Sequence record: OL631481.1
DNA length: 64,000 bases
Reading direction: 5' to 3' (one strand)
Source: Escherichia phage ECML-183-2
In this document: in pieces, positions 4,328 to 49,475 of the stretch
Position numbering within the stretch: position 1 is the stretch's first letter
Layout of the letters: every line of letters begins with the position of its first letter
The notes under the pieces: generated by a model
What the model was told of the DNA's origin: nothing
What the model saw: the letters and a program-made list of their open reading frames with translations, nothing else
Database searches by the model: none
Made by a program: the position numbers and the translations under genes

Positions 4328-4807
4328 TTAGTCCTTCTTGACTTTAACGCCCATTGCGCCTATACTCAAACCTTTAAGAACGCCGTCTTTACGAGCTTGA
4401 TATAATTCAGGGTCGTTGAATTGGATTTTAACGAGGGGAGTTCCTTCCACAACGAGTTCGTCACCAATGTAACAATCGACTTCATTTACCCAAGCTTTAA
4501 TTGGAGAAAACTTATCGGTGTTCTTCATGTGACCAAGATTACCACTAATGTTGGTAATATTCTCATTGAAGTTGTCAACCATCTTCCTGATTTCCAAATC
4601 AGACATGCGCTCTCCGTGGAGATCGTCTTCTTCAGGTGGACAATACAAGACCTCAATAACCTGCATCTTTTCTTCATCAAATTTATTTTGTTTGACTAGA
4701 GTTTCAGGTTTTTGAGATGGTATAGAATCTTGTTGGGATTCAGAATTCTCTTTAAAACCAGCGAAGGTTTTGAAGAGTTCCCACAGTGTATCTTTATTGA
4801 GTTCCAT
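4328..4807 (-). CDS. head morphogenesis protein (possible prohead protease)
   Basis: 159 aa ORF between portal and scaffold, the usual protease position; no catalytic motif recognised. Confidence 0.35.
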   Translation of the reverse strand: MELNKDTLWELFKTFAGFKENSESQQDSIPSQKPETLVKQNKFDEEKMQVIEVLYCPPEEDDLHGERMSDLEIRKMVDNFNENITNISGNLGHMKNTDKFSPIKAWVNEVDCYIGDELVVEGTPLVKIQFNDPELYQARKDGVLKGLSIGAMGVKVKKD

Positions 4808-4843
4808 TTGAAACCTCTTAAAAACAGATATCCCATAAATCTT

Positions 4844-4872
4844 AGTCTACAGGATATTTGTTGTTTTGTCAA
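4844..4872 (-). promoter_or_regulatory. sigma70-like promoter (TTGACA-N17-TAGACT) upstream of gene 4328-4807
   Basis: minus-strand TTGACA at 4872-4867, 17 nt spacer, -10-like hexamer at 4849-4844. Confidence 0.35.
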
Positions 4873-4900
4873 TAGAAAAATTAAAAAATATTAAATATTT

Positions 4901-10145: not shown

Positions 10146-10224
10146 TGGAGGCGGGAATTGGATTTGAACCAATGATCTCCAGCATATGAAACTGGCGAGG
10201 ACGACCAGACTCCTCTATCCCGCT
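10146..10224 (-). tRNA. tRNA-Met(CAT)
   Basis: hand-folded cloverleaf: anticodon loop TTCATAT, T-arm ATTGG-TTCAAAT-CCAAT, encoded CCA; position 1-72 is an A-C mismatch. Confidence 0.6.
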
Positions 10225-10301
10225 ATTATGTATCCCGTGCTGGATTCGAACCAGCATCACAAAAATTGTGGATCTCTTATCCTGTAAGTCTAACGGGAAA
10301 C

Positions 10302-10375
10302 TGGTTGTTTCGACAAGAATCGAACTTGTGTCTCACGATTATCAGTCGTGGGTTCTACCATTGAACTACGAAACA
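10302..10375 (-). tRNA. tRNA-Ile(GAT)
   Basis: acceptor TGTTTCG/CGAAACA, anticodon stem CACGA/TCGTG with loop CTGATAA, T-loop TTCGATT, encoded CCA. Confidence 0.75.
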
Positions 10376-10438
10376 TTTAAAAGAATATCTCACGTCTGAT
10401 ACAGACTAACCTTTTGTCTGACGCATGAAATATTTAAT

Positions 10439-10515
10439 TGGTCGGAATTGCAGGATTCGAACCTGCGACCCTACGCTCCCAAAGCGTATGCTCTACCAAA
10501 CTGAGCTAAATTCCG
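10439..10515 (-). tRNA. tRNA-Pro(TGG)
   Basis: acceptor CGGAATT/AATTCCG, D-arm GCTC-AGTTTGGTA-GAGC, anticodon loop TTTGGGA, T-arm GCAGG-TTCGAAT-CCTGC, CCA. Confidence 0.8.
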
Positions 10516-10520
10516 TTATA

Positions 10521-10596
10521 TGGCTGGTCTGTCTGGATTTGAACCAAACCTACGACAGTCAAAGTGTCGTGTGCTACCGGACTACACTACAAACCA
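10521..10596 (-). tRNA. tRNA-Gln(TTG)
   Basis: acceptor TGGTTTG/CAGACCA, anticodon stem CGACA/TGTCG with loop CTTTGAC, T-loop TTCAAAT, CCA. Confidence 0.8.
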
Positions 10597-10694
10597 ATAA
10601 ATCATTTAATGAAGGGCAACCAGAAGAAGTGTGAGAGAAGGAGAAAACCATGAGTAAAAGAGAAAGTTTTCTGGCAACCCTTTATTAAATAATT

Positions 10695-10771
10695 TGGAGC
10701 GTTATATCGGATTCGAACCGATGCCACCGACTTGGAAGGACGGGATGCTGAACCGCTAACACTAATAACGC
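10695..10771 (-). tRNA. tRNA-Gly(TCC)
   Basis: acceptor GCGTTAT/ATAACGC, anticodon loop CTTCCAA (one stem mismatch), T-arm ATCGG-TTCGAAT-CCGAT, CCA. Confidence 0.65.
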
Positions 10772-10784
10772 TTTGTATATATTT

Positions 10785-10814
10785 ACTATACTACATTTTA
10801 CTATCGAATGTCAA
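10785..10814 (-). promoter_or_regulatory. sigma70-like promoter (TTGACA-N18-TATAGT) inside the tRNA cluster
   Basis: minus-strand TTGACA 10814-10809, 18 nt spacer, TATAGT 10790-10785; predicted start a few nt upstream of the tRNA-Gly 5' end. Confidence 0.5.
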
Positions 10815-11089
10815 TAGTTATTTAATAGGTGGGACAGTGACGAGTATCCCTTTGGGTGACTAGCCCTACGTTCGGTAAGCTAACTTAAAATAATACAAAA
10901 CCAAAGTCAAATATTATTCTTCGTTGCTGTCGATGGGAGAGCCGCTTCTTCTTTTGCCCCATCCAACCCTACTCCGGTCAAGTTTCAGGTAACTCTTTGT
11001 GTGATCAACACAATACTAAGAACACTGTCTTTCGAACAGACCTTGTGCACAGGATACGACGATCAATCACAGTGCCCTTAATGTTGTGT

Positions 11090-11164
11090 TGGTGCTCCCA
11101 CTCTGAATCGAACAGAGATCCACGGATTACAAAACCGTTGTAATAGCCATTATACTATAGGAGC
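11090..11164 (-). tRNA. tRNA-Thr(TGT)
   Basis: acceptor GCTCCTA/TGGGAGC, anticodon loop TTTGTAA, T-arm CTCTG-TTCGATT-CAGAG, CCA. Confidence 0.65.
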
Positions 11165-11255
11165 AAAGCTGGGACTCGGCAGGATTCGATACCTGCAATT
11201 CCAGAAGCCTCTTGGCGACTGGGGGGTTTACCTTAACTCTACAAGTCCATAATTC

Positions 11256-11341
11256 TGGCGATGAGTATAGGATTTGAACCTATATCGTTCTTTCGAACAC
11301 GGATTAACAGTCCGCCGCTTAAACCATTCAGCCAACTCATC
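11256..11341 (-). tRNA. tRNA with anticodon GTT (Asn-type) but type-II architecture
   Basis: acceptor GATGAGT/ACTCATC, anticodon stem GCGGA/TCCGT with loop CTGTTAA, extra variable hairpin GTTC-GAAA-GAAC, T-arm ATAGG-TTCAAAT-CCTAT, discriminator G, CCA. Confidence 0.5.
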
Positions 11342-11347
11342 TTAATT

Positions 11348-11435
11348 TGGTGGTGAGTGATGGAGTCGAACCACCCGAATCGCAATGATAACAGATTTAC
11401 AGTCTGCCCCGCTACCCCTACGGAATTAACTCACC
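11348..11435 (-). tRNA. tRNA-Tyr(GTA)
   Basis: acceptor GGTGAGT/ACTCACC, anticodon arm CAGA-CTGTAAA-TCTG, long variable arm, discriminator A, CCA. Confidence 0.8.
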
Positions 11436-11565
11436 TAAATGCTAATATTTAAATTCTTTTTAAAATAGCCAGTGTTCACACCACTAACTATGAGGTATCG
11501 GTAAAGTGGTTACCGCCACTTGCCGAAGATTTACTCTGCTAAAGTAAGCTATATTAAAAAGAACT

Positions 11566-11651
11566 TGGCGGTAGATGTAGGACTCGAACCTACACGCCGT
11601 TTCCGACTACAGTTTAGCAAACTGTCGTGGCTACCATTTCACCAATCTACC
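11566..11651 (-). tRNA. tRNA-Ser(GCT)
   Basis: acceptor GGTAGAT/ATCTACC, anticodon arm ACAGT-TTGCTAA-ACTGT, long variable arm, T-arm GTAGG-TTCGAGT-CCTAC, discriminator G, CCA. Confidence 0.8.
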
Positions 11652-11655
11652 AATC

Positions 11656-11746
11656 TGGCGGAAGGAGGGAGAGTCGAACTCCCAAGGCTCTTTCAAGCTC
11701 GGCGGTTTTCAAGACCGTTTTCGTCGCCACGTCGATTTGCCCTTCC
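11656..11746 (-). tRNA. tRNA-Ser(TGA)
   Basis: acceptor GGAAGGG/TCCTTCC, anticodon region ACGGTCTTGAAAACCGCC, long variable arm, T-arm GGGAG-TTCGACT-CTCCC, CCA. Confidence 0.8.
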
Positions 11747-11754
11747 ATACTTAT

Positions 11755-11784
11755 AATCTAACATAAAATAATGTTAGTTGTCAA
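11755..11784 (-). promoter_or_regulatory. sigma70-like promoter directly upstream of tRNA-Ser(TGA)
   Basis: minus-strand TTGACA 11784-11779 with a weak -10 about 17-18 nt downstream; tRNA 5' end at 11746. Confidence 0.35.
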
Positions 11785-11980
11785 TAGTTTTTTAAAACAT
11801 TTTACCATGAATGGTGACTCCACCAACCCCCGTTCTCAGCGAACGGTGCTCTTCGAGCATTTATGTCTTCTAATATAACCGTGGCCTTTGTTTATAATGT
11901 CTGACATACTTACCTCATTCTCTGCCACCATGATCAGTAGTGGGTTCAAATCACTTGAGCTAATTCATGTTAAAATGTTC

Positions 11981-12055
11981 TGGTGTCTTTACAAGGAATC
12001 GAACCTTGACTAAGAGTTTAGAAGACTCCTGTGCTATCCATTACACCATAAAGAC
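11981..12055 (-). tRNA. tRNA-Arg(TCT)
   Basis: acceptor GTCTTTA/TAAAGAC, D-arm GTGT-AATGGATA-GCAC, anticodon loop CTTCTAA, T-arm CAAGG-TTCGATT-CCTTG, CCA. Confidence 0.75.
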
Positions 12056-12057
12056 GT

Positions 12058-12132
12058 TGGTGGCCCTGGCTGGTTTCGATCCAGCTACCTATCGGTTATG
12101 AGCCGACAGCTCTCCCATTGAGCTACAGGGCC
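12058..12132 (-). tRNA. tRNA with CAT anticodon (Ile2-lysidine type or elongator Met)
   Basis: acceptor GGCCCTG/CAGGGCC, D-arm GCTC-AATGGGA-GAGC, anticodon loop CTCATAA, T-arm GCTGG-ATCGAAA-CCAGC, CCA; overall resembles bacterial tRNA-Ile2. Confidence 0.7.
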
Positions 12133-15885: not shown

Positions 15886-16230
15886 ATGAAAGTTTGGATA
15901 GATGATATGCGGAACCCAGCCGACTATGGACAGGAAGATGCAATTTGGTTTAAAACGTCACAAGAAGCTATGGCTTTTCTCAATGATCCTGCTAAACTGT
16001 ATCGAAGAGTAACCGAGTGGTCTTTTGACAATGATTTAGGTATGGAGTCAGACCAAGATGGGTATGATGTTTTCCTGTACCTGGAAGAACTTCTGGCGTT
16101 TGGTAAACCTTGCTTTGGTTCACCCACCATTTTCGTGCATACTTCTAATCCCGCCGCTGGGGATAAATTCATGCTTGCAAAAGAATCCATGCTGCGTTAT
16201 GGTATTAAAATGATTCGTGTGCACTATTAA
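15886..16230 (+). CDS. hypothetical protein
   Basis: 114 aa ORF, RBS GAGGAGG. Confidence 0.5.
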   Translation: MKVWIDDMRNPADYGQEDAIWFKTSQEAMAFLNDPAKLYRRVTEWSFDNDLGMESDQDGYDVFLYLEELLAFGKPCFGSPTIFVHTSNPAAGDKFMLAKESMLRYGIKMIRVHY

Positions 16231-16239
16231 GGAGAGAAC

Positions 16240-16383
16240 ATGCATCATTCGGTTTGGTCGGAACAAGAAGAGGACGAAGGTTACTTTATCTACCGAGAAG
16301 AAGAGGATTGGCCCGACACAAGTAATGATCTTTTACTTCCAGATACTAGTTTTATCGAGGATAACTTAAGAGAGGAGGATTAG
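16240..16383 (+). CDS. small acidic protein (47 aa)
   Basis: RBS AGGAGAG before ATG; below ORF-track length cutoff. Confidence 0.3.
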   Translation: MHHSVWSEQEEDEGYFIYREEEDWPDTSNDLLLPDTSFIEDNLREED

Positions 16384-16389
16384 GAAACA

Positions 16390-16746
16390 ATGAGTGGTAT
16401 TGAAAACAATATTTGTTACCAACCTCTTACCTGGATTGGTGAGGGTCATTATGCGCAACGTGTTATCGTCTGTGCTGCGAATAAGTATATTTTGAATAAT
16501 GGTGAAGAGTTAATTATTCCTTGTGTTCGACATGCAAATCCTGTACTATATGCACAGTTAAGCGTGTTGAAAGAAGCAGGTGTAATCAACAAAACTTTGT
16601 GCACACCAGATAATCAAGGCTTTATCGATCAGTATTACAATTGGTGGAGTCGTGCGGATGCTTACGTCATCGCGGAAAATGCTGACCAGATCGACCATGA
16701 GCGTAATGGTCACGACCATGAATTATTTAGCGAGGGATTATACTAA
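16390..16746 (+). CDS. hypothetical protein
   Basis: 118 aa ORF. Confidence 0.5.
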   Translation: MSGIENNICYQPLTWIGEGHYAQRVIVCAANKYILNNGEELIIPCVRHANPVLYAQLSVLKEAGVINKTLCTPDNQGFIDQYYNWWSRADAYVIAENADQIDHERNGHDHELFSEGLY

Positions 16747-17297
16747 TGTTTATTACAAGCGATTTGCATTTTATGCATAAACGTATTCGAGAGTTTGCTC
16801 CTGAATATCGTCCGTGGGAAGATATGGACCACATGACAGAAGCCTTGATCGAAGCATGGAACAAATGTGCTACTACTCCTGGTGTTAAGATGTGGCATTT
16901 GGGCGACTTCTGTTTCGGAACTGAAGAAGATACCCGTAAAATTGCTTCCCGTCTCCAAGGAGATATCACCTACTGTGTTGGGAACCATGACTACAGCAAA
17001 CACCGAGAAGTGCTTGCAGAGTATGGAGAAGTGGTGTATTATGACGAAGTGAAATATCAGAAGCTGTTCTTCGTCTTAAGCCATTACCCTATGGCCTCCT
17101 GGAATAAACAAGGTCGTGGATCAATCATGCTACACGGGCATTCCCACGGATCTTTCCCTGATGAAGCTTATGGTAAAATGTTAGATGTGGGTTGGGATGC
17201 ACACGGAAAAATCTTGCATTTTGATGAGATAATTTCTATGATGAGTAAACGAGATATCGTGACTGTAGACCATCACAAAATAATCAAAGGAGAGTAA
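16746..17297 (+). CDS. calcineurin-like metallophosphoesterase (candidate RNA 3'-end healing phosphatase)
   Basis: motifs DLHF, GDF, GNHD, HGHSHG; directly upstream of ligase and kinase. Confidence 0.65.
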   Translation: MFITSDLHFMHKRIREFAPEYRPWEDMDHMTEALIEAWNKCATTPGVKMWHLGDFCFGTEEDTRKIASRLQGDITYCVGNHDYSKHREVLAEYGEVVYYDEVKYQKLFFVLSHYPMASWNKQGRGSIMLHGHSHGSFPDEAYGKMLDVGWDAHGKILHFDEIISMMSKRDIVTVDHHKIIKGE

Positions 17298-17298
17298 T

Positions 17299-18231
17299 GT
17301 GACTAAATTTAATTGCGACGATTTGGTTGAAAAAGGTTTAGTTCATAAGAAAACATATAAAGAAGGAGAGTATTCTGGTCTATCTGTTCTTAAGTATAAG
17401 AACAAAGTTTTCTGGGATAACTTATGGAGCATTGATTCTCGTCTTCTAGAATGTCGCGGAATCGTTGTTGATGCTGATGACAATGTTGTTATTTGGCCTT
17501 TCACTAAGATTTTTAATCGTTTTGAGAATGGCACAGATCTACCAGCGGATGAACTTGTAGATGTGGTTCGTAAAGTAAATGGTTTTATGGCCTCTGTAGG
17601 TGTATATAAAGGTCAACTTATTGTATCGACAACAGGAAGCCTTGAATCAGATTTTGCAAGTATTGCAAAGAATCATATTGTTTCAGAGTGTGATGACATA
17701 GAACATTTCATCAAATGGACAGAGAGTGCAAAAGCAACTTTCCTTTTTGAAATCTGCGATCCTTCTGATCCGCATATTGTCGAAGAAGAACCAGGTGCAT
17801 ACTTAATTGGTGCCAGAATTCAAAATCCTGATGGGACAAGTTTTATGTTACCTGAAGGTGCTCTTGATGGAATTGCTTCTGTCACCAAATTTAAGCGTCC
17901 TGAAGTTCATTCGATGGTTAAGTTTTCAGATGTTGTTGAAATGTCTAAACATTGTAAACACGAAGGGTTTGTAGTTCGTGAAACAAACTATCCGTTCAAC
18001 TTGCTTTTAAAAATTAAATCACCACACTATCTTACTAAGAAGTTTCTTATGCGTGGTGGAGATAAAAAGTGGGATCTGATTTGGGATAATCCAAAAAATG
18101 CCAAACAAATTGTTGACGAAGAATATTACGCTTTGTTAGAATGGATTCGAAATAATTTTACGAAGACTCAATGGGCTGCTTTAAATCAGCAAGAGCGACG
18201 TGAAAAAATCGAAAACTTCTTTGGGGGATAA
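17299..18231 (+). CDS. ATP-dependent RNA ligase-like nucleotidyltransferase
   Basis: motif I KVNGF, motif IV EGFVVRE, motif V LLKIKS; GTG start; flanked by phosphoesterase and kinase. Confidence 0.6.
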   Translation: MTKFNCDDLVEKGLVHKKTYKEGEYSGLSVLKYKNKVFWDNLWSIDSRLLECRGIVVDADDNVVIWPFTKIFNRFENGTDLPADELVDVVRKVNGFMASVGVYKGQLIVSTTGSLESDFASIAKNHIVSECDDIEHFIKWTESAKATFLFEICDPSDPHIVEEEPGAYLIGARIQNPDGTSFMLPEGALDGIASVTKFKRPEVHSMVKFSDVVEMSKHCKHEGFVVRETNYPFNLLLKIKSPHYLTKKFLMRGGDKKWDLIWDNPKNAKQIVDEEYYALLEWIRNNFTKTQWAALNQQERREKIENFFGG

Positions 18232-18636
18232 ATGAAACAACTTATCATTTTACGTGGCGTTTCAGGTGCTGGTAAATCTACGGTAGCAGAAATTATTTCT
18301 GAAGGTTATTGGCCTATCTGTGAGGCAGATCAATATCATTACACAGAAAGTGGTGTTTACGATTGGAAGCCAGAAAATGTAGGTAAAGCACACGCATGGT
18401 GTCAGAGTATTGTTCGTGATGCTATGAAATCTGATCTTAAAAAGATTATTGTTTCTAACACTTCAACCACAGAGAAAGAACTTAAACCTTATTTAACTCT
18501 TGCTGAAGAGTTTGGTTATCAAGTTATCTCTTTAGTTGTTGAAAATAGACACGGTAACGATTCAATTCACGAGGTTCCACAACATATTCGTGATCAACAA
18601 GAGAAACGTCTTCGTGGTTCACTTAAACTTCAATAA
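18232..18636 (+). CDS. P-loop kinase, polynucleotide 5'-kinase-like
   Basis: Walker A GVSGAGKST near N-terminus; 134 aa; ATGA-coupled to the ligase gene. Confidence 0.55.
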   Translation: MKQLIILRGVSGAGKSTVAEIISEGYWPICEADQYHYTESGVYDWKPENVGKAHAWCQSIVRDAMKSDLKKIIVSNTSTTEKELKPYLTLAEEFGYQVISLVVENRHGNDSIHEVPQHIRDQQEKRLRGSLKLQ

Positions 18637-18645
18637 GGAGAGATA

Positions 18646-18972
18646 ATGCAAATTTATACAGATGATCGTAAATATGAGACAATTTTAGACGAAGATACTG
18701 GACGAATTACCGTTCTCCGTCACGGTGAAGAGTGGCGTGATGAAACTGGGGATAACTATATCTTATCTCTGATTCATCTTATTGAACAAATGCGTGATGA
18801 TTACGCTGAACTGCATTATGAAAATGAGGCGAATAAAGTAAAATTTGAAAATGAATTAGAAGAGAAAGAATCAGAAATGGTATATCTAAAAGAAGAGATC
18901 TCCCGTTTGGAGGAAGAGATTGATGCTCTTCAGGAAGAGATTTACGAACTCAACAACGAACTGAACTCTTAA
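18646..18972 (+). CDS. hypothetical coiled-coil protein
   Basis: 108 aa, Glu/Leu-rich heptads at C-terminus. Confidence 0.45.
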   Translation: MQIYTDDRKYETILDEDTGRITVLRHGEEWRDETGDNYILSLIHLIEQMRDDYAELHYENEANKVKFENELEEKESEMVYLKEEISRLEEEIDALQEEIYELNNELNS

Positions 18973-18981
18973 GGAGAGATT

Positions 18982-19173
18982 ATGAAAAAAGATATCGTTG
19001 TTGTTGGTTGGCTGACTTGCCCTTGTGGTAGTAATGACATAACTGTAAACACAGAGGGTGATAAAAATTATTTATTCTACGGTGATAAAATCACTTGCAA
19101 TACCTGCGGACGTGTTGGTATTATAGAAACCGATGATTGCTGCGTTTTTGAATCTTGGGATGAAGATGAATGA
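18982..19173 (+). CDS. zinc-ribbon protein
   Basis: CPCG ... CNTCG pairs. Confidence 0.45.
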   Translation: MKKDIVVVGWLTCPCGSNDITVNTEGDKNYLFYGDKITCNTCGRVGIIETDDCCVFESWDEDE

Positions 19174-19391
19174 GTACTGCATTTTATGTTCGTAGCGGGG
19201 ACGAGGATTTTCTAGCTACTTTTGATGACGGTGATCTTGAAGATATGTATGAAGATATGCTTGACTATGCCAAAGGGCAAGGTTTCACAAGCATTGATTA
19301 TATGTTGGCAACATCTACAACGTTACTCGACGCAGATTTGGATGAAGTGTGTAACAGATTGAAAATTTCAGTTTTTAAATGGGAGGACTAA
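19170..19391 (+). CDS. small acidic protein
   Basis: 73 aa, Asp/Glu-rich. Confidence 0.4.
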   Translation: MSTAFYVRSGDEDFLATFDDGDLEDMYEDMLDYAKGQGFTSIDYMLATSTTLLDADLDEVCNRLKISVFKWED

Positions 19392-20506
19392 TGCAACAAA
19401 CAAATCAAACGCTGTATGGTAAAGATTCAAAAGGAAAACTTAAACAGTGGACAGTGTATACAGATGGTGCAGTTGTTACTGTAGCTCATGGAAGGGTAGG
19501 TGGAAAAATCACAGAAAAATCTTATACAGCAGAAGCAAAAAACATTGGTCGTTCCAATGAAACAACACCGGAAGAACAAGCTGAACTTGAAGCTTTTGCC
19601 AAATGGACAAAACAGTTAAAGAATGGCTATTATAAAACAAAAGAAGAAGCTGAAAACCATGTTCCTTCCACACCAATGAAATGCCAGGATTATAAAGATT
19701 ATCCTGAAAAGGTTGTGTTCCCTGGTTATGCACAATACAAACTGAACGGGTTACGTTCTATGATTAACATGAAAGGGGAGTGTTTATCAAAAGCTGGGGA
19801 AGTGTATAACCTACCACCTCATTGGAAAGGTATTCCAAACTTTATTAGTGAAGTTGTTGGTCATCCTCTTGATGGTGAAGTGTTTGCTGGGTTAGGTGTC
19901 CTTAGTCTGCAACAAATTAACAGTGCTTGGAAGAAGCATAATGCAAATACACCTTTGCTGAATTATTACGTATACGATATTCCAGTTCCAGGCCTACCGT
20001 TTGAAAAACGTGTTGATGCTCTTGCTGCTCTTAAGGCAGTAGTTGAAGATTATGGTCTTGACGAGCTTATTTGTGTAGTTCATACAGAGTATATTGAAAA
20101 CCAAGAACAGTTTGATGCTTTCTATGAAAAAGCTTTACTTGAGAAAGCTGAAGGTGTAGTATATCGTAATGCTCACGGAGTTTACGAATTTGATAAACGT
20201 TCTTATGACGTTATTAAACGTAAGCCTCGCCACACCCTTGAAGTTAAAGTAACACATTCAAAAAGTGATAAAAATGGCGATGGAGTGTTGACAGGTGAGA
20301 TGGAAAATGGTAAAGTAGTCGAATTCTTAATGCGTAAAGATGCTCATGAGACTATCAATTATCGTAAAGCAGAGAATGCTTCTACCTTGATTAATCAGTT
20401 CGTTGAAATAGAGTATGAAGAATTTTCAGATGAAGGTATTCCAACAAAACCTGTTGGTGTTCGTATTCGAGAAATGATCCCAGGCACTTGGGAACCAGCA
20501 GAATAA
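19379..20506 (+). CDS. ATP-dependent ligase (DNA or RNA), nucleotidyltransferase superfamily
   Basis: motif I YKLNGLR (KxNG), motif IV EGVVYR, motif V VIKRK; 375 aa. Confidence 0.55.
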   Translation: MGGLMQQTNQTLYGKDSKGKLKQWTVYTDGAVVTVAHGRVGGKITEKSYTAEAKNIGRSNETTPEEQAELEAFAKWTKQLKNGYYKTKEEAENHVPSTPMKCQDYKDYPEKVVFPGYAQYKLNGLRSMINMKGECLSKAGEVYNLPPHWKGIPNFISEVVGHPLDGEVFAGLGVLSLQQINSAWKKHNANTPLLNYYVYDIPVPGLPFEKRVDALAALKAVVEDYGLDELICVVHTEYIENQEQFDAFYEKALLEKAEGVVYRNAHGVYEFDKRSYDVIKRKPRHTLEVKVTHSKSDKNGDGVLTGEMENGKVVEFLMRKDAHETINYRKAENASTLINQFVEIEYEEFSDEGIPTKPVGVRIREMIPGTWEPAE

Positions 20507-20515
20507 GGAGGAAAA

Positions 20516-20710
20516 ATGTTCTTAGCCATTTTAATCGTTTTCAGTGTGCTTTCTTTTTATTGTATGAATGCTTCTGAAAACTTTCCTAAGAATTCAAAGA
20601 AAAGAACCGTATGTGTTGCGATTGATTCATGTATGTCTGGAGTTGGGTATGCGGTAGTTTCTTGTTTCTTAGCTTATCATTGTGCAAAATACCTGGAGGC
20701 ATTTTTATGA
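20516..20710 (+). CDS. small membrane protein
   Basis: 64 aa, hydrophobic. Confidence 0.4.
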   Translation: MFLAILIVFSVLSFYCMNASENFPKNSKKRTVCVAIDSCMSGVGYAVVSCFLAYHCAKYLEAFL

Positions 20711-20889
20711 TAATTTTAGCAACAATTCTTATGATGTTGATAGCAATTGCTATTATAATTCTGGCATCTTTTCCGGCGGATAAATGGTATTTCAATATTC
20801 CACGTATGCTTGTTTTCGGTTTCGCAGGGATTTACATGGGTGAGTCTGTAGCAAATATTAGCAACTTTCTAGAAAGCTATTTTAAATAA
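20707..20889 (+). CDS. small membrane protein
   Basis: ATGA overlap; two hydrophobic helices. Confidence 0.4.
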   Translation: MIILATILMMLIAIAIIILASFPADKWYFNIPRMLVFGFAGIYMGESVANISNFLESYFK

Positions 20890-20898
20890 GGAGTTATA

Positions 20899-21624
20899 AT
20901 GATCGAGAATTTTTTTAAAGATATTAAATTCGATACTGAATTTTTCAAAAATGCAGCAAAGCACGTGATTGATTGGAATGCCAAAGCACGAGGTGGTGAA
21001 CAACCGGAATTCACTCAAGAGCTATTTATGTCCCAAATCGGGTTCGTTCGTGAAGAGCTTAAAGAGTATGAAACAGCCGCGAAAGTAAACGATCATGTAG
21101 AACTCTTGGATGCAGCAGCGGATATTTTTGTAGTATCCAGTTATCTGACCTACATGTTCTTTGGTGAAGAACATACGATGAATTTCTTGGACTATGCTGT
21201 AGGCGATGTTTTTACTCCAACTGTGTATACTGATTTTGATGCTTTGGAACAAACATTTACAGAGCCAGTTCAAATGGCACTAATGGCTGCTGGTATTATG
21301 CGTATGTCTCGTGACACTCTAATCCGTTCAAAATATCCAGAAAAGAAAGTTATTAAAGAGGTATTGAAAAGTAATGATTCCAAGTATCCAACTAAACAAC
21401 AGTTGCTGAAAACTTGGAAAACTTCGGATATCGATTCAGCCATTGCACAAGAATGCGCTGCAATTGAAGAACGAAATGCCAATCGTCCAGAAGGGGCATA
21501 CACTGGTGTTCATGCTGTTTATAATGAAAAACAGAAAGTGTATGTGTTCTTTGATGATAAAGGTAAGATCATGAAACCATCGACCTTTGTCAAACCTAAT
21601 ATTGCAGGTATTATTAATAAGTAA
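20899..21624 (+). CDS. MazG-like nucleoside triphosphate pyrophosphohydrolase (putative)
   Basis: all-alpha NTP-PPase-like EExxE...ELLDAAADIFVV motif. Confidence 0.4.
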   Translation: MIENFFKDIKFDTEFFKNAAKHVIDWNAKARGGEQPEFTQELFMSQIGFVREELKEYETAAKVNDHVELLDAAADIFVVSSYLTYMFFGEEHTMNFLDYAVGDVFTPTVYTDFDALEQTFTEPVQMALMAAGIMRMSRDTLIRSKYPEKKVIKEVLKSNDSKYPTKQQLLKTWKTSDIDSAIAQECAAIEERNANRPEGAYTGVHAVYNEKQKVYVFFDDKGKIMKPSTFVKPNIAGIINK

Positions 21625-39832: not shown

Positions 39833-40027
39833 ATGCAGAGCGGAGAAGAACTTTTAGAGAAACAATTCTCAACGCGTCAACAAGCTTTAAGTTATATGGT
39901 TTTTCTAAGCAATCTTGATGTGAATGAGATACTTTTACGGCGCGAAGGTAATTTCTGGAGCGTTAAATATCATGCAACAAGGTCTGTAATCTACCTGGAA
40001 GAGGCGGAATTCTCTTTGGTAGAATGA
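39833..40027 (+). CDS. hypothetical protein
   Basis: 64 aa. Confidence 0.4.
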   Translation: MQSGEELLEKQFSTRQQALSYMVFLSNLDVNEILLRREGNFWSVKYHATRSVIYLEEAEFSLVE

Positions 40028-40041
40028 TCCGAGGAGTAGTT

Positions 40042-40614
40042 ATGCGTTCAACTTTCACTGGCAAAATAAATGCTGGTTTGATTTTTACAGCAGTAAGCAT
40101 TCTTAGCAAAAAGTTTAAAGTTGTTAACTTACCTGTGTGTGTCGATTTCGATCATGTTTTTGATCCTTCGAACCCCACTCGTTGCATAGTAAGGAGCAAT
40201 GTTGAAAACCCAACAGAAAATCTTTTTTATGTAACAAAACCATCTCAAAGCATACTTAACCAGGTTGAGGCGAAATTGATACCTAACGGTAAATATTACT
40301 CCTTTTTACCTTGTAAGTCGGTTGAAGTAGAGAATAGCAATACTTTCGCTAATAACTTGTCTGTATTCGTTTTCTTTGTTTCACAGGAAGACGAAACAGA
40401 TGAAATGGTAGCAACAGTGAGATCACTTTATGACTCTTTAGGGGTTGTTTATAGTCAACAAGTGTGCGAAAATAATAAAGCCTGTGTAGATTTCATTATC
40501 AACGGTATTTGTGTTTGTAGAGTAGAATCTTTTTGGCTGCACGATACATATGTGACTGTAGCAGAGGTTATATCTGAACCAAGATTTAGTCATGCGGTTT
40601 CGTTAATAATTTGA
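40042..40614 (+). CDS. hypothetical protein
   Basis: start moved to ATG after GAGGAG. Confidence 0.45.
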   Translation: MRSTFTGKINAGLIFTAVSILSKKFKVVNLPVCVDFDHVFDPSNPTRCIVRSNVENPTENLFYVTKPSQSILNQVEAKLIPNGKYYSFLPCKSVEVENSNTFANNLSVFVFFVSQEDETDEMVATVRSLYDSLGVVYSQQVCENNKACVDFIINGICVCRVESFWLHDTYVTVAEVISEPRFSHAVSLII

Positions 40615-40624
40615 GGAGGAAGGA

Positions 40625-40954
40625 ATGGAAATTACTACAGAACAAGCCCTTATCGACGAGGGTCGTAAAATCTTAGAAAAGTATTTAGGGGAGATTCATA
40701 AAACCCCTGGCTATTTGGGTTGGAGAATTGTTGAAGCTGTAGATTTCCTTCCTCGTAACAGTAAAAACGTCGAAATGCGATCTCTTTTCTTATTAGTAAA
40801 GGTGGATGGGGATACGCCTTTTAAAGATGCCGCAGAACATATTGAAAAAGTTGAAGAGAAAGCTTATGCAGAATTTGCCGATCTTGTTTTAGAACAAGAG
40901 ATTGAAGGAAAGGTGAATATTTTTATTTTCTTAGATTTTGAGGAGGATAAGTGA
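40625..40954 (+). CDS. hypothetical protein
   Basis: 109 aa. Confidence 0.45.
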   Translation: MEITTEQALIDEGRKILEKYLGEIHKTPGYLGWRIVEAVDFLPRNSKNVEMRSLFLLVKVDGDTPFKDAAEHIEKVEEKAYAEFADLVLEQEIEGKVNIFIFLDFEEDK

Positions 40955-41694
40955 TCATACACAGAGAAATTACTGTTAAAAGCGATCAAGATCTTTTTAT
41001 AATTGGAGATCTACACGGTTGTTATAATTTGTATGAAAAAGGAAAGGCAAAGTTAGGTATCCGAGATACAGATGTGGTTGTATCTCTAGGAGATCTTACT
41101 GACCGTGGAAAGCAAAACTTTCGTTGTGTTTTAGAATTTACTCGTAAACACAATCGCTACGCTATTCGTGGCAATCATGAAGACATGATGATTAAAGGTA
41201 TGCTGGAAGGAGATCGTAGCTACTACGAGTGTTGGTATCAAAATGGAGGATATACGGTCTTTGAAGAATGTGGTGAAGAAGGAGCTACAGCCTTAGCAAT
41301 GATGACAGAAGATTTACCTGTTGTTCTCATTGTTAACTACAGAGGCATGAAACTTGCGTTTATTCATGGTGGGTATCCATCTTCTTTGGAATATCTCCCT
41401 GTAACAGATATTCCAGAATACATTTCGAAGATGACAAAAACACAGGAAAACCGTTTTGCTGAAGCACTTATGTGGGACAGAGATATGGTAGACTGTGCTA
41501 AAGAGGGAATGAAACTTCCTGTTGTGATGGGTGTGGATTATGTGTTTCATGGACACTCTTATGTAAAAACACCTATTATCAATGCGAATCGTGTTTATAT
41601 GGATACTGGATCTGTGTTCAATAATAACTTAACATTTGCTTATTTCGATATGGACGGTGGTCTTCAATTTTATTCAACTCTTGAGGAGGATTAA
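40951..41694 (+). CDS. Ser/Thr protein phosphatase (lambda-PPase-like metallophosphatase)
   Basis: GDLHGCY, GDLTDRG, GNHED motifs. Confidence 0.7.
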   Translation: MIIHREITVKSDQDLFIIGDLHGCYNLYEKGKAKLGIRDTDVVVSLGDLTDRGKQNFRCVLEFTRKHNRYAIRGNHEDMMIKGMLEGDRSYYECWYQNGGYTVFEECGEEGATALAMMTEDLPVVLIVNYRGMKLAFIHGGYPSSLEYLPVTDIPEYISKMTKTQENRFAEALMWDRDMVDCAKEGMKLPVVMGVDYVFHGHSYVKTPIINANRVYMDTGSVFNNNLTFAYFDMDGGLQFYSTLEED

Positions 41695-42002
41695 TGTATA
41701 AGATTACAATTATTCAAAGTGTAGGTAATATCCGTAAAGAAGTTATCTTAGAAACAGAAGATGTTAATCTTGTTCGTGAGATTGTTTTTAAGGAAGATAA
41801 CCTGCAAACTGTAGAATCGGATGCACCGAATCTTATGGTGGATCAAGAATATTCTGAACTTCGTCGTATTTTTGAAGAGATTCAGAAGAAAGAAACACAA
41901 CCTACCATAAAACCTTTTGGTCCTTATGATCCGAGCAATCCTAGCAGTCCTTGGATCATGAGAAATACGGAACCCTATACACCTTTTGAAATTACTTGTT
42001 GA
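41694..42002 (+). CDS. hypothetical protein
   Basis: 102 aa. Confidence 0.45.
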   Translation: MYKITIIQSVGNIRKEVILETEDVNLVREIVFKEDNLQTVESDAPNLMVDQEYSELRRIFEEIQKKETQPTIKPFGPYDPSNPSSPWIMRNTEPYTPFEITC

Positions 42003-42009
42003 GGTGATT

Positions 42010-42591
42010 ATGGCAGAACTGTTCTATACGGGAGTTGGAAGTAGAGACATATCTGAAGAAGAGTGGGCTTTGATGGTAGGCATAGGGAAATGGCTTTCAA
42101 ACCTTGGGTTTAAATTAAGGTCTGGGAAGGCAGAGGGTAGTGATTCTGCTTTTGAAACAGGTGTCCAAGAGTCTGAAAATCCTACTAACAAGGAGATTTA
42201 TGTTCCTTGGGAAAATTTCAAAGGTAATCAGATTCCAGGTGATGTTATTGTTCTTGCAAAACCAGATACAATGAACTATGCTATCTCTGTGCAATGGATC
42301 AAAGATGTTCACCCAGCTTATGAAAAGCTTAAGCAGGGTGCTAGAAAATTGCACCAACGTAATGTGCATCAAGTGTTAGGCAGAGATTTGGAGAATCCTG
42401 CTCCATCATGTTTCTTGTTGGCTTGTGCTAATACTGATAAACATGGAGATGCAAAAGGTGGAACAGCTACGGCTTGGAAGATAGCTAAAGCCAATAATGT
42501 TCCTTGTTTAAACATTCGTGGGAAAACAAAACAAGAGATTTACGATTTTCTACGACCTTTGGTAATGAGGGCAATAACAAGTGATTCCTAG
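42010..42591 (+). CDS. DprA/SLOG-like Rossmann-fold protein (putative)
   Basis: GVGSRD ... RSGKAEGSDSAFETG resembles the DprA/LOG-type GxAxGxD motif; start moved to ATG after GAGGTGA. Confidence 0.35.
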   Translation: MAELFYTGVGSRDISEEEWALMVGIGKWLSNLGFKLRSGKAEGSDSAFETGVQESENPTNKEIYVPWENFKGNQIPGDVIVLAKPDTMNYAISVQWIKDVHPAYEKLKQGARKLHQRNVHQVLGRDLENPAPSCFLLACANTDKHGDAKGGTATAWKIAKANNVPCLNIRGKTKQEIYDFLRPLVMRAITSDS

Positions 42592-46429: not shown

Positions 46430-47046
46430 TGTCAAATTCAAAACCAGTAGTTGCTTATCAAGTAGATCGTAATGATGGTGAAGGTAGTGTTGTAGTTTTT
46501 GATACACATGGTCTTGCAGCAAGACGCAAAGGTGCTTGTCTACTGGACATTGGTGGTGAAGATGAATACTGCACTGTACGTAGAGTAAAAGAATTTGATC
46601 AATATGCTGAAAAAGGTTTTGTACCCGTGAAAGCACTATTAGAAGCTGGATGGTGGATACCTAGTGCACATGATTATGATATTTTGGAAGATACAGATGA
46701 ATTCAACAGTGAAGATTTTGTTTTTTCTCTGGATGAAAAATGCGTTTGGAAGGACTGGGATGAAATGGAACGCCATGCTTATTTTATAAACGAAGCATTA
46801 GATCGTAAAACTTGGTTTGAGAATACAGTTAAAGCAGCGTATCCTCAATTTACTTTTACACAGTTTTGGGGTGGCCCACATCATATTACTCATACAGCAT
46901 ATTTCGAGTTCCCAGGCTCACGTTATAAAGGTACTGTTTATTGGGATTGGGACGAGGACAAAGAACCTTCTGCTCAAGACTTCCGTTGCTATGTTTGTCA
47001 AGGTGATCAAGAAGCCCTTGACAAATACCTACAAAGTCTGGTATAG
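46429..47046 (+). CDS. hypothetical protein
   Basis: 205 aa. Confidence 0.45.
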   Translation: MSNSKPVVAYQVDRNDGEGSVVVFDTHGLAARRKGACLLDIGGEDEYCTVRRVKEFDQYAEKGFVPVKALLEAGWWIPSAHDYDILEDTDEFNSEDFVFSLDEKCVWKDWDEMERHAYFINEALDRKTWFENTVKAAYPQFTFTQFWGGPHHITHTAYFEFPGSRYKGTVYWDWDEDKEPSAQDFRCYVCQGDQEALDKYLQSLV

Positions 47047-47064
47047 TGCCAACATCTGAACAAA

Positions 47065-47092
47065 GCCTCCTGTTTCAGGGGGCTTTTCTTTT
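47065..47092 (+). terminator. hairpin plus T-run
   Basis: GCCTCC...GGGGGC stem followed by TTTTCTTTT. Confidence 0.45.
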
Positions 47093-47104: not shown

Positions 47105-47584
47105 ATGTTTCAAGTAAATGTCAATGTGCATAATAGTTACTCTGATTGTGAAACGTGTGGCTATAATTCATCTAATGTTGTTCGTATTAGTGGCGATTTA
47201 GGAGAAGCTTCTTTTGGAGAAGAAGCAAGTTGCTTTAGTGGTATGGATGCAGAATGGAATGATATTGCACATTGGTTGGTGAGCAAACTAAAAGAAAAAG
47301 AGAAACCATTTCCTACTCTGCTTGATCGTTCTCTTGTGGAAGACGCAGGTAAAGCATATGCAGACTATGCGTATGCAGACGGTAAATATTTGGAAGATGA
47401 TAAGGCTAACCATTTGCTTTATGTTTACTATGAAGCTGAATCTGCCTACGATAATTATTACAGCATGTCTAACATCCTACGTCTGTTTGCAGAGTTTGAT
47501 ATTTATTTCGAAGTAGAATTTTCAGAAGATGATGTTTATGAATATGATTCTTATGATCCATTTGAGGAGGAAGAGGGTGAATGA
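47105..47584 (+). CDS. highly acidic protein (possible DNA mimic)
   Basis: 159 aa, Asp/Glu/Tyr-rich C-terminus (EDDVYEYDSYDPFEEEEGE). Confidence 0.4.
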   Translation: MFQVNVNVHNSYSDCETCGYNSSNVVRISGDLGEASFGEEASCFSGMDAEWNDIAHWLVSKLKEKEKPFPTLLDRSLVEDAGKAYADYAYADGKYLEDDKANHLLYVYYEAESAYDNYYSMSNILRLFAEFDIYFEVEFSEDDVYEYDSYDPFEEEEGE

Positions 47585-48168
47585 TAGAACGAAAACCCTT
47601 ACCAGATAGAGACTACTTGTTATCAAGGTTTAGTGTGGAGAATGGTCGTCTTGTTTGGAAACCTAAACCTTCTACAACAAAAGAGAACAAAAGATGGAAT
47701 AGCAGATACGCAGGGAAGATTGCAGGGACTATTGATAAAGCTGGTTACTCTCATGTCAAAATAGACGGTATTGTATACTTGGAGCACAGAGTTTGTTTTA
47801 AAATGTACCATAATTACTGTCCAGATGTTATAGATCATGATGACGGCAATAAGCTTAATAATGCGGAAAGTAATTTATTGGATAGTAACTATTTATTAAA
47901 TAATAACAATAGACATGTGGATGGGTTAGAAGGTATTTATGAAAAGGATGGTGTTTTTCTTTGGGTTATAAACTACAACCAAGAAACTTTCTCTGTTTCA
48001 GGTTTCAAAACTAAAGAGGAAGCTACTGTAGCTAGAGCTTTAGCAAAACAAGAAATTTTGAAAGGATCTTATATCAAAAAAGAAAAGAAGCGTATAGATA
48101 ACACTTCAGGATTAAGTTGTGTGTTTGTGGCAACAAGAGAGAACATTCTTTTTCAAGTTTGTGTTTGA
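47581..48168 (+). CDS. HNH homing endonuclease (HNH_3-like)
   Basis: LEHRV ... IDHDDGNKLNNAESNL signature. Confidence 0.6.
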   Translation: MIERKPLPDRDYLLSRFSVENGRLVWKPKPSTTKENKRWNSRYAGKIAGTIDKAGYSHVKIDGIVYLEHRVCFKMYHNYCPDVIDHDDGNKLNNAESNLLDSNYLLNNNNRHVDGLEGIYEKDGVFLWVINYNQETFSVSGFKTKEEATVARALAKQEILKGSYIKKEKKRIDNTSGLSCVFVATRENILFQVCV

Positions 48169-48308
48169 CAAGACCACGTATTGCAAATATGGTTTCAACG
48201 ATCCAGAGAGATGTGCTATAGCTCTGGAGAAGCTAAGGTTGAAGGTGATGAAAGAAAAATATAAACCTGCAAATAAAAGCATTTGCGAAAAACATAAGGA
48301 GGAGATTT

Positions 48309-49124
48309 ATGCCGCGTAGAGTCATATTCATAACTGGCGCAGGACTATCTGTGGATAGCGGTATCCCAGCTTTTAGAACAGATACTTCTTCAGGGGAGGC
48401 GTTATGGTCTTCTTATAATCTTTCTGAAGTCTGTGACATTTTCAACTTCCGTGACGGTTATCAGCAAGAACAAGGTATTCTGGATGCTATGGGCGGTTTA
48501 GATGCGGAAGGATATAACCTCTACCGTAAAACTCACGACTTTTACAATAAACGTCGCGCGGAATTAGAGAAAGTTGACCCGAATCCGGCACATCTTCAGA
48601 TTGGGGAATGGTTCAAAAAACATGGTGCAGAAAAGATTATTAACATCACTACTAACGTTGATGACCTCCTTGAACGAGCAGGAGTAGATAGGGAAGAAGT
48701 GCTACATGTGCATGGTTTTCTTCCTGAAATTACTTTTCAAAGAAAAGCTGGACAACCTACAATTGTAAAAGATGTTGGTTATCAAGCCATAGATGTAGAT
48801 GACTACCATTATGTAAAACCTAATGTAATCTTCTTTGGGGAAGCTGCTCCACTTTACACAGATATGTATCATATTTTTGATACACTGACGGCTCAAGATA
48901 TGGTTATCGTTGTAGGCTGCTCTAACCAAGTAATCAACTTCAACTGGGAACTCTTCCCTGCCCTGAATATTGGGGTTAAGATGGTTGTAGTTAACCCAGG
49001 TTTGAATTTTGTAGAACAAACTCTCTACGAAGAACGTGGAGTGCTTGTCTACCGAGAGAAAGCAGGAACAGTCTTCAGTGATGAAGGCTTTATCAAAATG
49101 GTTGAAGACCATTTAAACAAATAA
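48309..49124 (+). CDS. Sir2-family (sirtuin-like) NAD-dependent protein lacking the zinc ribbon
   Basis: ITGAGLSVDSGIPAFR, LHVHGF, PNVIFFGE, VIVVGCS; no CxxC pairs. Confidence 0.65.
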   Translation: MPRRVIFITGAGLSVDSGIPAFRTDTSSGEALWSSYNLSEVCDIFNFRDGYQQEQGILDAMGGLDAEGYNLYRKTHDFYNKRRAELEKVDPNPAHLQIGEWFKKHGAEKIINITTNVDDLLERAGVDREEVLHVHGFLPEITFQRKAGQPTIVKDVGYQAIDVDDYHYVKPNVIFFGEAAPLYTDMYHIFDTLTAQDMVIVVGCSNQVINFNWELFPALNIGVKMVVVNPGLNFVEQTLYEERGVLVYREKAGTVFSDEGFIKMVEDHLNK

Positions 49125-49133
49125 ACCACTCAA

Positions 49134-49152
49134 GGGGCTTCGGCCCCTTTCT
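49134..49152 (+). terminator. hairpin GGGGCTTCGGCCCC (copy 3 of 3)
   Basis: identical 14-mer followed by TTTCTT. Confidence 0.4.
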
Positions 49153-49440: not shown

Positions 49441-49446
49441 AACAAA

Positions 49447-49475
49447 GGCACCCAAGTGGGTGCCTTTTCTATTTT
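49447..49475 (+). terminator. intrinsic terminator closing the plus-strand block
   Basis: GGCACCC-AAGT-GGGTGCC followed by TTTTCTATTTT. Confidence 0.65.

Follow-up and report, generated by a model that had tools for sequence, protein, structure and literature searches.

The 64,000-nucleotide stretch of Escherichia phage ECML-183-2 DNA analysed here (sequence record OL631481.1; hereafter the window) carries a gene of the Sir2 (sirtuin) family, sir2, whose features are collected in Table 1. Sequence comparisons suggest that its product of 271 amino acids (aa) is a real, apparently active sirtuin that uses nicotinamide adenine dinucleotide (NAD) and is without zinc-binding cysteines, and that it belongs to a phage branch probably derived from class III (CobB/SIRT5-like) sirtuins by loss of the zinc ligands. 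The original prediction, made from the DNA letters alone, had described a Sir2-family protein without a zinc ribbon and had likened it to the NAD-consuming effectors of bacterial immune systems.

The open reading frame (ORF) begins with ATG and ends with TAA at 49122-49124, and it is preceded by a strong ribosome-binding site. Membership of the Sir2 family was borne out by Pfam PF02146 (SIR2; E 3.2e-21, 76.5 bits against a cut-off of 24, profile positions 1-178 of 180) and by a full-length match to PHROG 2162, 'Sir2 (NAD-dependent deacetylase)' (E 1.2e-95); with such profile scores the match is evidently not due to chance. All four motifs that had been quoted for the protein occur verbatim, namely GAGLSVDSGIPAFR, LHVHGF (aa 132-137), PNVIFFGE (aa 171-178) and VIVVGCS (aa 199-205), and the NAD-binding and catalytic-His signatures are intact. 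The residues of the NAD+ pocket (GAGxS, F22/R23, N116, D118, G203/S205 and N229) are retained together with the catalytic His135. In an alignment of 20 members of the clade the invariant positions are G10-A11-G12, S17, G18, F22, R23, Y79, R82, R83, T114-T115-N116, D118, H135-G136, F175-F176, E178, G203, S205 and N229. A variable insertion of ~20-30 aa lies in the helical small domain and is absent from rV5-like members.

Table 1. Features of sir2 and of the RNA-repair cassette, with their positions in the window
Feature	Positions	Strand	Basis or remark
cREC (cyclic-phosphate-processing receiver)	15886..16230	+	PF20274, E 3.9e-17
Calcineurin-like metallophosphoesterase	16746..17297	+	Pfam Metallophos
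T4 Rnl1-type RNA ligase	17299..18231	+	PF09511, E 1.1e-15
Small P-loop nucleotide/polynucleotide kinase	18232..18636	+	Pfam AAA_33; sir2 directly after kinase in relatives
ATP-dependent DNA ligase	19379..20506	+	Annotation of phage nepoznato; directly downstream of sir2 in relatives
MazG-like nucleotide pyrophosphohydrolase	20899..21624	+	Pfam PRA-PH
Shine-Dalgarno sequence AAGGAGG	48296..48302	+	Six bases before the sir2 ATG; read from the sequence
sir2 coding sequence	48309..49124	+	Single-domain canonical sirtuin, phage clade PHROG 2162
NAD-binding signature GAGLSVDSGIPAFR, aa 10-23	48336..48377	+	G10, A11, G12, S17, G18, F22, R23 clade-invariant
FYNKRR, aa 78-83	48540..48557	+	Y79 and R82 align with CobB Y92 and R95
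TTNVD, aa 114-118, variant of TQN(I/V)D	48648..48662	+	N116 and D118 kept; Gln to Thr115
Catalytic His135 codon, second His of LHVHG	48711..48713	+	Aligns with the catalytic His of CobB, Sir2-Af2 and Sir2Tm
Zinc-module remnant, aa 137-170	48717..48818	+	Predicted three-stranded antiparallel sheet, no Cys
PNVIFFGE, substrate/NAD FGE loop	48822..48845	+	V173 aligns with CobB V187, an acyl-pocket residue
Terminator-like hairpin, short, GC-rich, directly 3' of the sir2 stop	49132..49149	+	Consensus match only

The gene is already known, since an identical protein is in GenBank, the family has a PHROG of its own, and both the zinc loss and the clade have been published. The 4 kb around sir2 are 98.3% identical to Escherichia phage nepoznato (Phapecoctavirus, Stephanstirmvirinae), whose 'Sir2-like protein' is 100% identical to the product studied here; members of Phapecoctavirus are phAPEC8-like myoviruses of about 150 kb. 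The sir2 region is matched by about 80 related records, all of which label the gene Sir2-like protein or NAD-dependent deacetylase. A translated search found homologues in 992 of 50,697 phage records (about 2%), 918 of them at a coverage of at least 80%. Identity to the query is 63-100% in Phapecoctaviruses, 50-59% in T5-like Demerecviridae, about 47% in rV5-like Vequintavirinae, about 35% in KVP40/nt-1-like Vibrio phages and about 28-37% in jumbo phages. This conserved and seemingly active sirtuin is present in about 2% of sequenced phage genomes, among them those of T5-like, rV5-like and phAPEC8-like phages that are used in therapy cocktails.

Cellular relatives were sought in two scans of one genome each for 185,579 bacterial and archaeal species, which returned 0 and 1 loci. 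The single distant locus lies on a 43-kb contig (JBOFGC010000083.1) of a metagenome-assembled genome named 'Bacilli bacterium'; because this contig carries endonuclease VII, NrdD/NrdG and gp30.3/NADAR genes, it represents a T4-like phage and not a bacterial chromosome. At the sensitivity of these scans the clade appears to be essentially restricted to phages. Members of PHROG 2162 from T5-, rV5-, phAPEC8-, KVP40-like and jumbo phages share with the ECML-183-2 protein the absence of the zinc cysteines and the motifs TTNVD and FYNKRR.

Two papers, which the original prediction had missed along with the wide annotation of the clade, bear on the zinc loss and on a possible RNA-repair role (PMC5107563, PMC9503650). 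Skliros et al. 2016 (PMC5107563) modelled the Sir2/CobB proteins of the KVP40-like Vibrio phages KVP40, phiSt2 and phiGrn1, and found that the finger domain is without its zinc ligand whereas the catalytic His and the lysine tunnel are still present. They pointed to homologues in T5 and other phages and, on the basis of models and transcript data only, proposed that the protein deacetylates and activates host acetyl-CoA synthetase. These schizoT4-like Vibrio phage proteins belong to the same clade and have lost the zinc ligands in the same way, whereas host range and genome context differ. Iyer, Burroughs, Anantharaman and Aravind 2022 (PMC9503650, section 3.7.3) recognized a distinct phage sirtuin clade and proposed for it a KptA-like removal of RNA 2'-phosphates.

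Predicted fold, acyl pocket and zinc site

A model made with AlphaFold2, for which the alignment of the clade served as input, had a mean pLDDT (predicted local distance difference test) score of 87.1 and a predicted template modelling score of 0.87; the sole poorly predicted stretch was the cofactor-binding loop at residues 23-33. The model has a sirtuin fold, with a Rossmann domain and a small domain, and CobB was ranked first by Foldseek (E 8e-16, template modelling score 0.84 on the target) at an identity of about 25%. In the fold comparison the figures were 20.6 for Sir2-Af1, 17-18.5 for PfSir2A, SIRT4, SIRT1 and SIRT2, and 13.8 for SirTM, against 12.4 for PsSIR2, 11.8 for KomC, 11.6 for HerA-Sir2, 10.5 for ThsA, 10.3 for Avs5 and 9.3 for FAM118B, and the modelled fold seems to be about twice as near to deacylases as to defence NAD-consuming enzymes (NADases). 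A profile built from the 20 clade members, when compared with PDB, placed the class III enzymes at the top, with CobB (1.5e-24), Sir2-Af2 (2e-18), Sir2-Af1 (9e-17) and SIRT5 (1.3e-14), followed by Sir2Tm (3e-12) and SIRT2/1 (about 1e-8).

The likeness to NADases of the ThsA and DSR type that had been proposed for the protein is not upheld by these comparisons, nor by the profiles of defence proteins: the match to PF13289 (SIR2_2) reached 12.2 bits against a cut-off of 24.5 (E 0.2), none of the PADLOC sirtuin models matched, and the sole PADLOC match was to an unrelated model (E 0.038). Defence SIR2 proteins (ThsA, DSR1/2, SIR2-HerA, SIR2-APAZ, Avs5 and FAM118; SIR2_2) have in common with the phage protein a Rossmann-type core, NAD+ as substrate and the absence of zinc. 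Marks by which the defence group can be told are the complete lack of the zinc sheet module and a fusion to, or an operon with, a sensor or partner (SLOG, HerA, prokaryotic Argonaute or STAND), whereas the phage protein is predicted to keep the module and is a single domain. SirTM, of class M, has no catalytic His and is macrodomain-linked (PMC8556138), whereas His135 of the phage clade is invariant and no macrodomain gene is adjacent to sir2.

The acyl pocket was mapped by comparing chains of engineered CobB (A76G, Y92A, I131C/L and V187Y) with the wild type in the same profile alignment. In this way CobB A76 corresponds to C42 of the phage protein, Y92 to Y79, R95 to R82, I131 to V117 and V187 to V173. 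The register of FY79NKR82R on FY92NAR95R of CobB is fixed by the Y92A mutant chain 6rxs, which is in the alignment. A Tyr/Arg pair of this kind is the hallmark of class III sirtuins, such as SIRT5 and CobB, which remove succinyl, malonyl and glutaryl groups. The residues of the acyl-lysine tunnel of CobB are likewise retained (C42, V117, V173 and F176). CobB, the best match in sequence and in fold, resembles the phage protein in its NAD+ pocket and catalytic His, in the Tyr/Arg pair and the residues that line the acyl tunnel, and in having a zinc module of about the same length; the phage protein differs from CobB and SIRT5 in having no Cys4, in having Thr for Gln in TQN(I/V)D, and in the stretch that follows GxS.

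The protein has two cysteines only, C42 and C204, neither in a CxxC, and none of its 120 closest database homologues has a CxxC either. The absence of a CxxC...CxxC site, as originally claimed, therefore stands. The broader claim that the zinc-binding module is missing stands in part: the Cys4 ligands are gone, but a three-stranded sheet is still predicted, with strands at 136-144, 152-155 and 168-173 (pLDDT about 94-96), and the segment is about as long as in CobB. Judging from the model, what has been lost is the four zinc ligands and not the beta-sheet module. Proteins of the SIR2_2 type, by comparison, are without the whole zinc beta-sheet module (PMC12700824). Binding of zinc through His, Asp or Glu ligands was considered and appears unlikely, as no such residue is conserved in aa 137-170.

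How the zinc ligands and the Gln-to-Thr change are distributed was surveyed in a library of 1.84 billion sequences clustered at 50% identity, from which the best 143 full-length representatives were aligned with MAFFT in query coordinates. The catalytic His, N116 and D118 are present in essentially all 143, the FGE loop in most, although partly variable, and the Tyr79/Arg82 pair in most. Gln at position 115 together with at least three Cys in the module was found in 74 representatives, and Thr with fewer than three Cys in 35; the mixed classes were Thr with at least three Cys (11 representatives) and Gln with fewer than three (10 representatives). Loss of the zinc ligands and the change from Gln to Thr therefore appear to be correlated but separable, and the counts suggest that zinc was lost more than once within the CobB-like neighbourhood. 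In a stricter contrast of 34 zinc-less proteins (Thr115, at most one Cys in the module) with 68 CobB-like ones (Gln115, at least four Cys), Thr115 versus Gln was the sole position that differed consistently. The distant zinc-less representatives come almost entirely from metagenomic contigs, one of them labelled 'Bacteriophage sp.', and may be of phage or of cellular origin.

Gene context of sir2 in related phages

The window contains a complete RNA-repair cassette (15886-21624; Table 1) about 30 kb upstream of sir2 and on the same strand; the plus-strand block that holds sir2 also holds nucleotide-metabolism and repair genes. The cassette has in addition an ORF of PHROG 839 between the cREC and metallophosphoesterase genes. 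The slot between kinase and DNA ligase, which is the place of sir2 in many related phages, is occupied here by three small ORFs.

Context was surveyed in 59 loci, made up of 55 viral contigs with relatives and four annotated records, which were searched with the cassette proteins of the window. The sir2 gene lies inside the cassette in 14 of the 59, from rV5-like phages and from myoviruses of the roughly 146-kb Klebsiella/Cronobacter type, with Sir2 proteins that are 42-56% identical. The order there is metallophosphoesterase, Rnl1, cREC, kinase, Sir2, DNA ligase and MazG, sir2 being mostly found between kinase and DNA ligase, and in rV5-like phages between cREC and MazG; the arrangement within the cassette was confirmed in the record of phage FV3. 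We infer from these arrangements that cREC is a candidate functional partner of the sir2 product.

A second context was seen in 28 T5-like loci, where a HAD_SAK_2 gene (PF18143, 4.4e-19) starts no more than about 500 bp after sir2 ends; no homologue of it was found in the window by tblastn. One such phosphatase carries a misleading name. Gp117 of Salmonella phage Seafire (7129-7668 of the fetched locus) is 'Sir2 (NAD-dependent deacetylase)' in RefSeq and is in fact a HAD_SAK_2 RNA-repair phosphatase by the same PF18143 match; the wrong label arises because PHROG 18062, of 92 positions and named Sir2, matches only the C-terminal half of the phosphatase.

In the Salmonella jumbo phage SE_PL, sir2 follows a 2H phosphoesterase gene and precedes an unassigned ORF, a Nudix gene and cREC, in that order, and genes for NMNAT and a NAPRT-family protein lie 2-4 kb upstream of sir2. 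The gene directly upstream of sir2 (4510-4956 of the fetched locus) encodes gp284, which matches the family of 2H phosphodiesterases of Acb1 (PF23474, 60.7 bits against 27, 1.7e-16), a protein directed against the cyclic-oligonucleotide-based anti-phage signalling system (CBASS), and the downstream Nudix gene is Nudt16-like. This region of SE_PL could be an RNA-repair island or a counter-defence island. On the T4-like contig JBOFGC010000083.1, sir2 directly follows a NAMPT gene, and a NADAR gene is close by.

The Phapecoctavirus lineage itself (7 loci) differs from these relatives, in that no cassette, HAD or NAD-salvage gene adjoins sir2; the neighbours are a DNA methyltransferase gene and small unassigned ORFs, and in this genome also an HNH endonuclease gene. 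The surveyed loci cluster phylogenetically and count as about three independent contexts of RNA-end processing and two of NAD salvage.

Candidate activities of the sir2 product

The catalytic set is invariant and the gene is repeatedly paired with nicotinamide-recycling enzymes, and for these reasons we consider it very probable that the protein binds NAD+, expels nicotinamide and passes adenosine diphosphate (ADP)-ribose to an oxygen nucleophile with the help of His135. The NAMPT, NMNAT and NAPRT neighbours in two other lineages fit a turnover of NAD+ in which nicotinamide is released. The identity of the acceptor is a matter of lower confidence.

We tentatively favour an NAD+-dependent deacylase for anionic acyl-lysines, a reading that seems to us the leading one while falling short of an even chance. 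An acyl-lysine acceptor is favoured by the homology, by the hydrophobic tunnel and by the distal Tyr/Arg anion site, which is apt for a succinyl-type chain. Under this reading NAD+ would be bound, nicotinamide would be released, and ADP-ribose would be transferred to the carbonyl oxygen of an N-acyl-lysine, so that free lysine and an O-acyl-ADP-ribose would be produced. Acyl groups that are negatively charged at their far end (succinyl, malonyl or glutaryl) would be preferred and acetyl would also be accepted, while the small beta-sheet module would be held together without zinc. The targets would be host or phage proteins, and the gene order in relatives suggests that targets or purpose may be tied to the RNA/DNA end-repair enzymes of the phage and to NAD+ supply. 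Deacylation of host targets, which stood among the roles originally listed for the protein, remains a live option. One further option, apart from the readings weighed here, is deacylation of the catalytic lysines of the repair enzymes themselves, or of N-acylated aminoacyl-tRNA. A protein deacylase would give a clear case, found in nature, of a canonical sirtuin that works without zinc, and it would mean that phages rewrite lysine acylation in the host.

Several observations weigh against a deacylase. The Cys4 zinc site, which is reported to be necessary for deacetylation by canonical sirtuins (PMC12700824), is missing from the protein. Wherever the motif could be located among the close homologues (116 proteins), Thr takes the place of the Gln of TQN(I/V)D, and the clade-invariant GCSNQVINFNWELFP stands in place of the canonical GTSLxVxP, the peptide-binding stretch. 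Every cut-off of the NCBIfam CobB/deacylase models (NF040867 and the related PRK00481 models) was missed, with a best score of 98.4 bits against 243 and, for the CobB equivalog NF040867, 84.3 bits against 320. In three phage lineages the genes around sir2 point to RNA ends and cyclic phosphates, not to protein modification. Finally, no enzymology or genetics of the Sir2 proteins of T5, rV5, phAPEC8, KVP40 or other members was found in the literature.

A rival reading is an RNA-repair sirtuin, as put forward by Iyer et al. 2022 (PMC9503650). In this proposal, which we hold to be possible and nearly as likely as the deacylase, an RNA 2'-phosphate or another RNA-end phosphate would attack C1'' of NAD+, nicotinamide would leave, and the 2''-OH of ADP-ribose, activated by His135, would remove the phosphate as ADP-ribose 1''-2''-cyclic phosphate. 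The protein would thereby finish what kinase, phosphoesterase, cREC and Rnl1 begin in repairing tRNA or mRNA that host anticodon nucleases have cut, and the 2H, HAD, Nudix and MazG neighbours would process RNA ends or the ADP-ribose by-product.

The attraction of an RNA substrate lies in the context described above, namely the 14 loci with sir2 in the cassette, the 28 T5-like loci with a HAD_SAK_2 ('Swiss Army Knife RNA repair') gene after it and the gene order of SE_PL. The window itself has, besides the complete cassette, 10 tRNA genes on the minus strand at 10146-12132 (Met x2, Ile, Pro, Gln, Gly, Thr, Asn, Ser and Arg). Zinc loss, the Gln-to-Thr change and a remodelled VYP stretch would also fit a change of substrate, and the hypothesis is in print (section 3.7.3 of the paper by Iyer et al.).

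The likeness to Tpt1/KptA is nevertheless one of possible chemistry and context only, as the two have unrelated folds and no similarity in sequence. In Tpt1/KptA an oxygen nucleophile attacks C1'' of NAD+ and an attack by the ribose 2''-OH follows, and, like sir2, it occurs together with a kinase, an enzyme that processes cyclic phosphates and a ligase of the Rnl1 type, as in fungal tRNA splicing. A heal-and-seal set of the T4 type (kinase, phosphoesterase and Rnl1), however, leaves no 2'-phosphate to remove. The distance of sir2 from the cassette in the present genome also counts against this reading, since in the Phapecoctavirus lineage the gene has been separated from it and yet kept, and the 14 and 28 loci shrink to about three independent contexts once their phylogeny is considered. 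The hydrophobic tunnel for acyl-lysine and the distal anion site of Tyr/Arg are kept, as they are in desuccinylases, an RNA backbone would be a poor fit for a lysine tunnel, and we know of no sirtuin that has been shown to act on RNA.

Stated more generally, the protein may, with some doubt, be a PF02146 sirtuin whose acceptor is linked to nucleic acid and is not an acyl-lysine. It could remove RNA 2'-phosphates in a manner analogous to Tpt1/KptA or ADP-ribosylate RNA ends; more speculatively, it could reverse N-acyl damage on charged tRNA. In either form it would work alongside cREC, kinase, phosphoesterase and Rnl1 to counter host anticodon nucleases or toxins that target tRNA. Were RNA repair to prove correct, sirtuin chemistry would extend to nucleic acids, and a step would be added to the measures by which phages counter tRNA-cleaving defences.

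A free NADase, an ADP-ribosyltransferase or an anti-defence factor, which would deplete or reshape host NAD+, ADP-ribosylate targets or disturb NAD-derived immune signals, is in our view improbable. The missing zinc ligands are compatible with such a role, as are the counter-defence-associated Acb1-family 2H phosphodiesterase gene directly upstream of sir2 in SE_PL and the NAMPT/NMNAT salvage genes and NADAR gene near relatives. Some canonical sirtuins are, moreover, weak ADP-ribosyltransferases. The protein nevertheless falls below the SIR2_2 cut-off, matches no PADLOC sirtuin model and is about twice as close in fold to deacylases, and it has kept the catalytic His that SirTM has not (PMC8556138). 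It is without a sensor or partner domain, and the ORFs that flank sir2 in the window include no macrodomain match. An unregulated NADase would also hurt the phage's own need for NAD+, and relatives pair the gene with NAD+ synthesis.

That sir2 is the decayed, catalytically dead remnant of a captured host cobB is very improbable, for although the zinc site is lost and identity to CobB is only about 25%, the NAD-binding and catalytic residues do not vary between phage families that have nothing else in common, identity between Demerecviridae, Vequintavirinae and Stephanstirmvirinae is 47-59%, the ORF is intact in the 918 high-coverage records, and the ribosome-binding site is strong. Recent capture of a host cobB was also considered and is ruled out by the same identity of about 25%.

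Other features of the window

The immediate neighbours of sir2 in the window are an HNH endonuclease gene and small unassigned ORFs. The former, an HNH_3 homing-endonuclease gene (47581-48319; PHROG 99, 4.7e-32), lies directly upstream and overlaps the start of sir2. Where phage nepoznato has an intact 246-aa gp194, the window has two ORFs (47581-48168 and 48119-48319), because 2 bp are deleted within an (AG)n run near 48136. At least 80% of the 4-kb query with the HNH_3 gene is covered by nepoznato and by one other record only, the remaining relatives reaching at most 79%; the relatives with lower coverage probably lack the HNH_3 gene.

Where the plus-strand block meets a minus-strand block, a GC-rich hairpin of 10 perfectly paired bp (49444-49467), with T-runs on both strands, resembles a bidirectional terminator. 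Another strong terminator-like hairpin, at 47062-47086, comes immediately after a promoter-like site of near-consensus sequence (47018-47047).

In the Phapecoctavirus lineage sir2 is accompanied by two genes that lie 4-8 kb upstream of it (40024-40614 and 41986-42591). Neither has a Pfam match, and their PHROG names, 'histidyl tRNA synthetase' (196 aa) and 'DprA-like' (201 aa), are doubtful; the 'DprA-like' product is possibly a SLOG-type nucleotide-binding domain. Between the two lies a gene for a NinI-like metallophosphatase (40951-41694).

Two further differences from phage nepoznato were seen at sites of HNH genes. The tRNA-Gln gene (10521-10596) occupies the site that in nepoznato, between tRNA-Pro and tRNA-Gly, is taken by an HNH endonuclease gene. 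The ORF for the large terminase (6568-8643, 691 aa) is uninterrupted in the window, whereas in nepoznato it is annotated in two pieces around an HNH gene, over a span about 970 bp longer, which suggests a mobile intron or intein-like insertion in the nepoznato terminase that is missing here.

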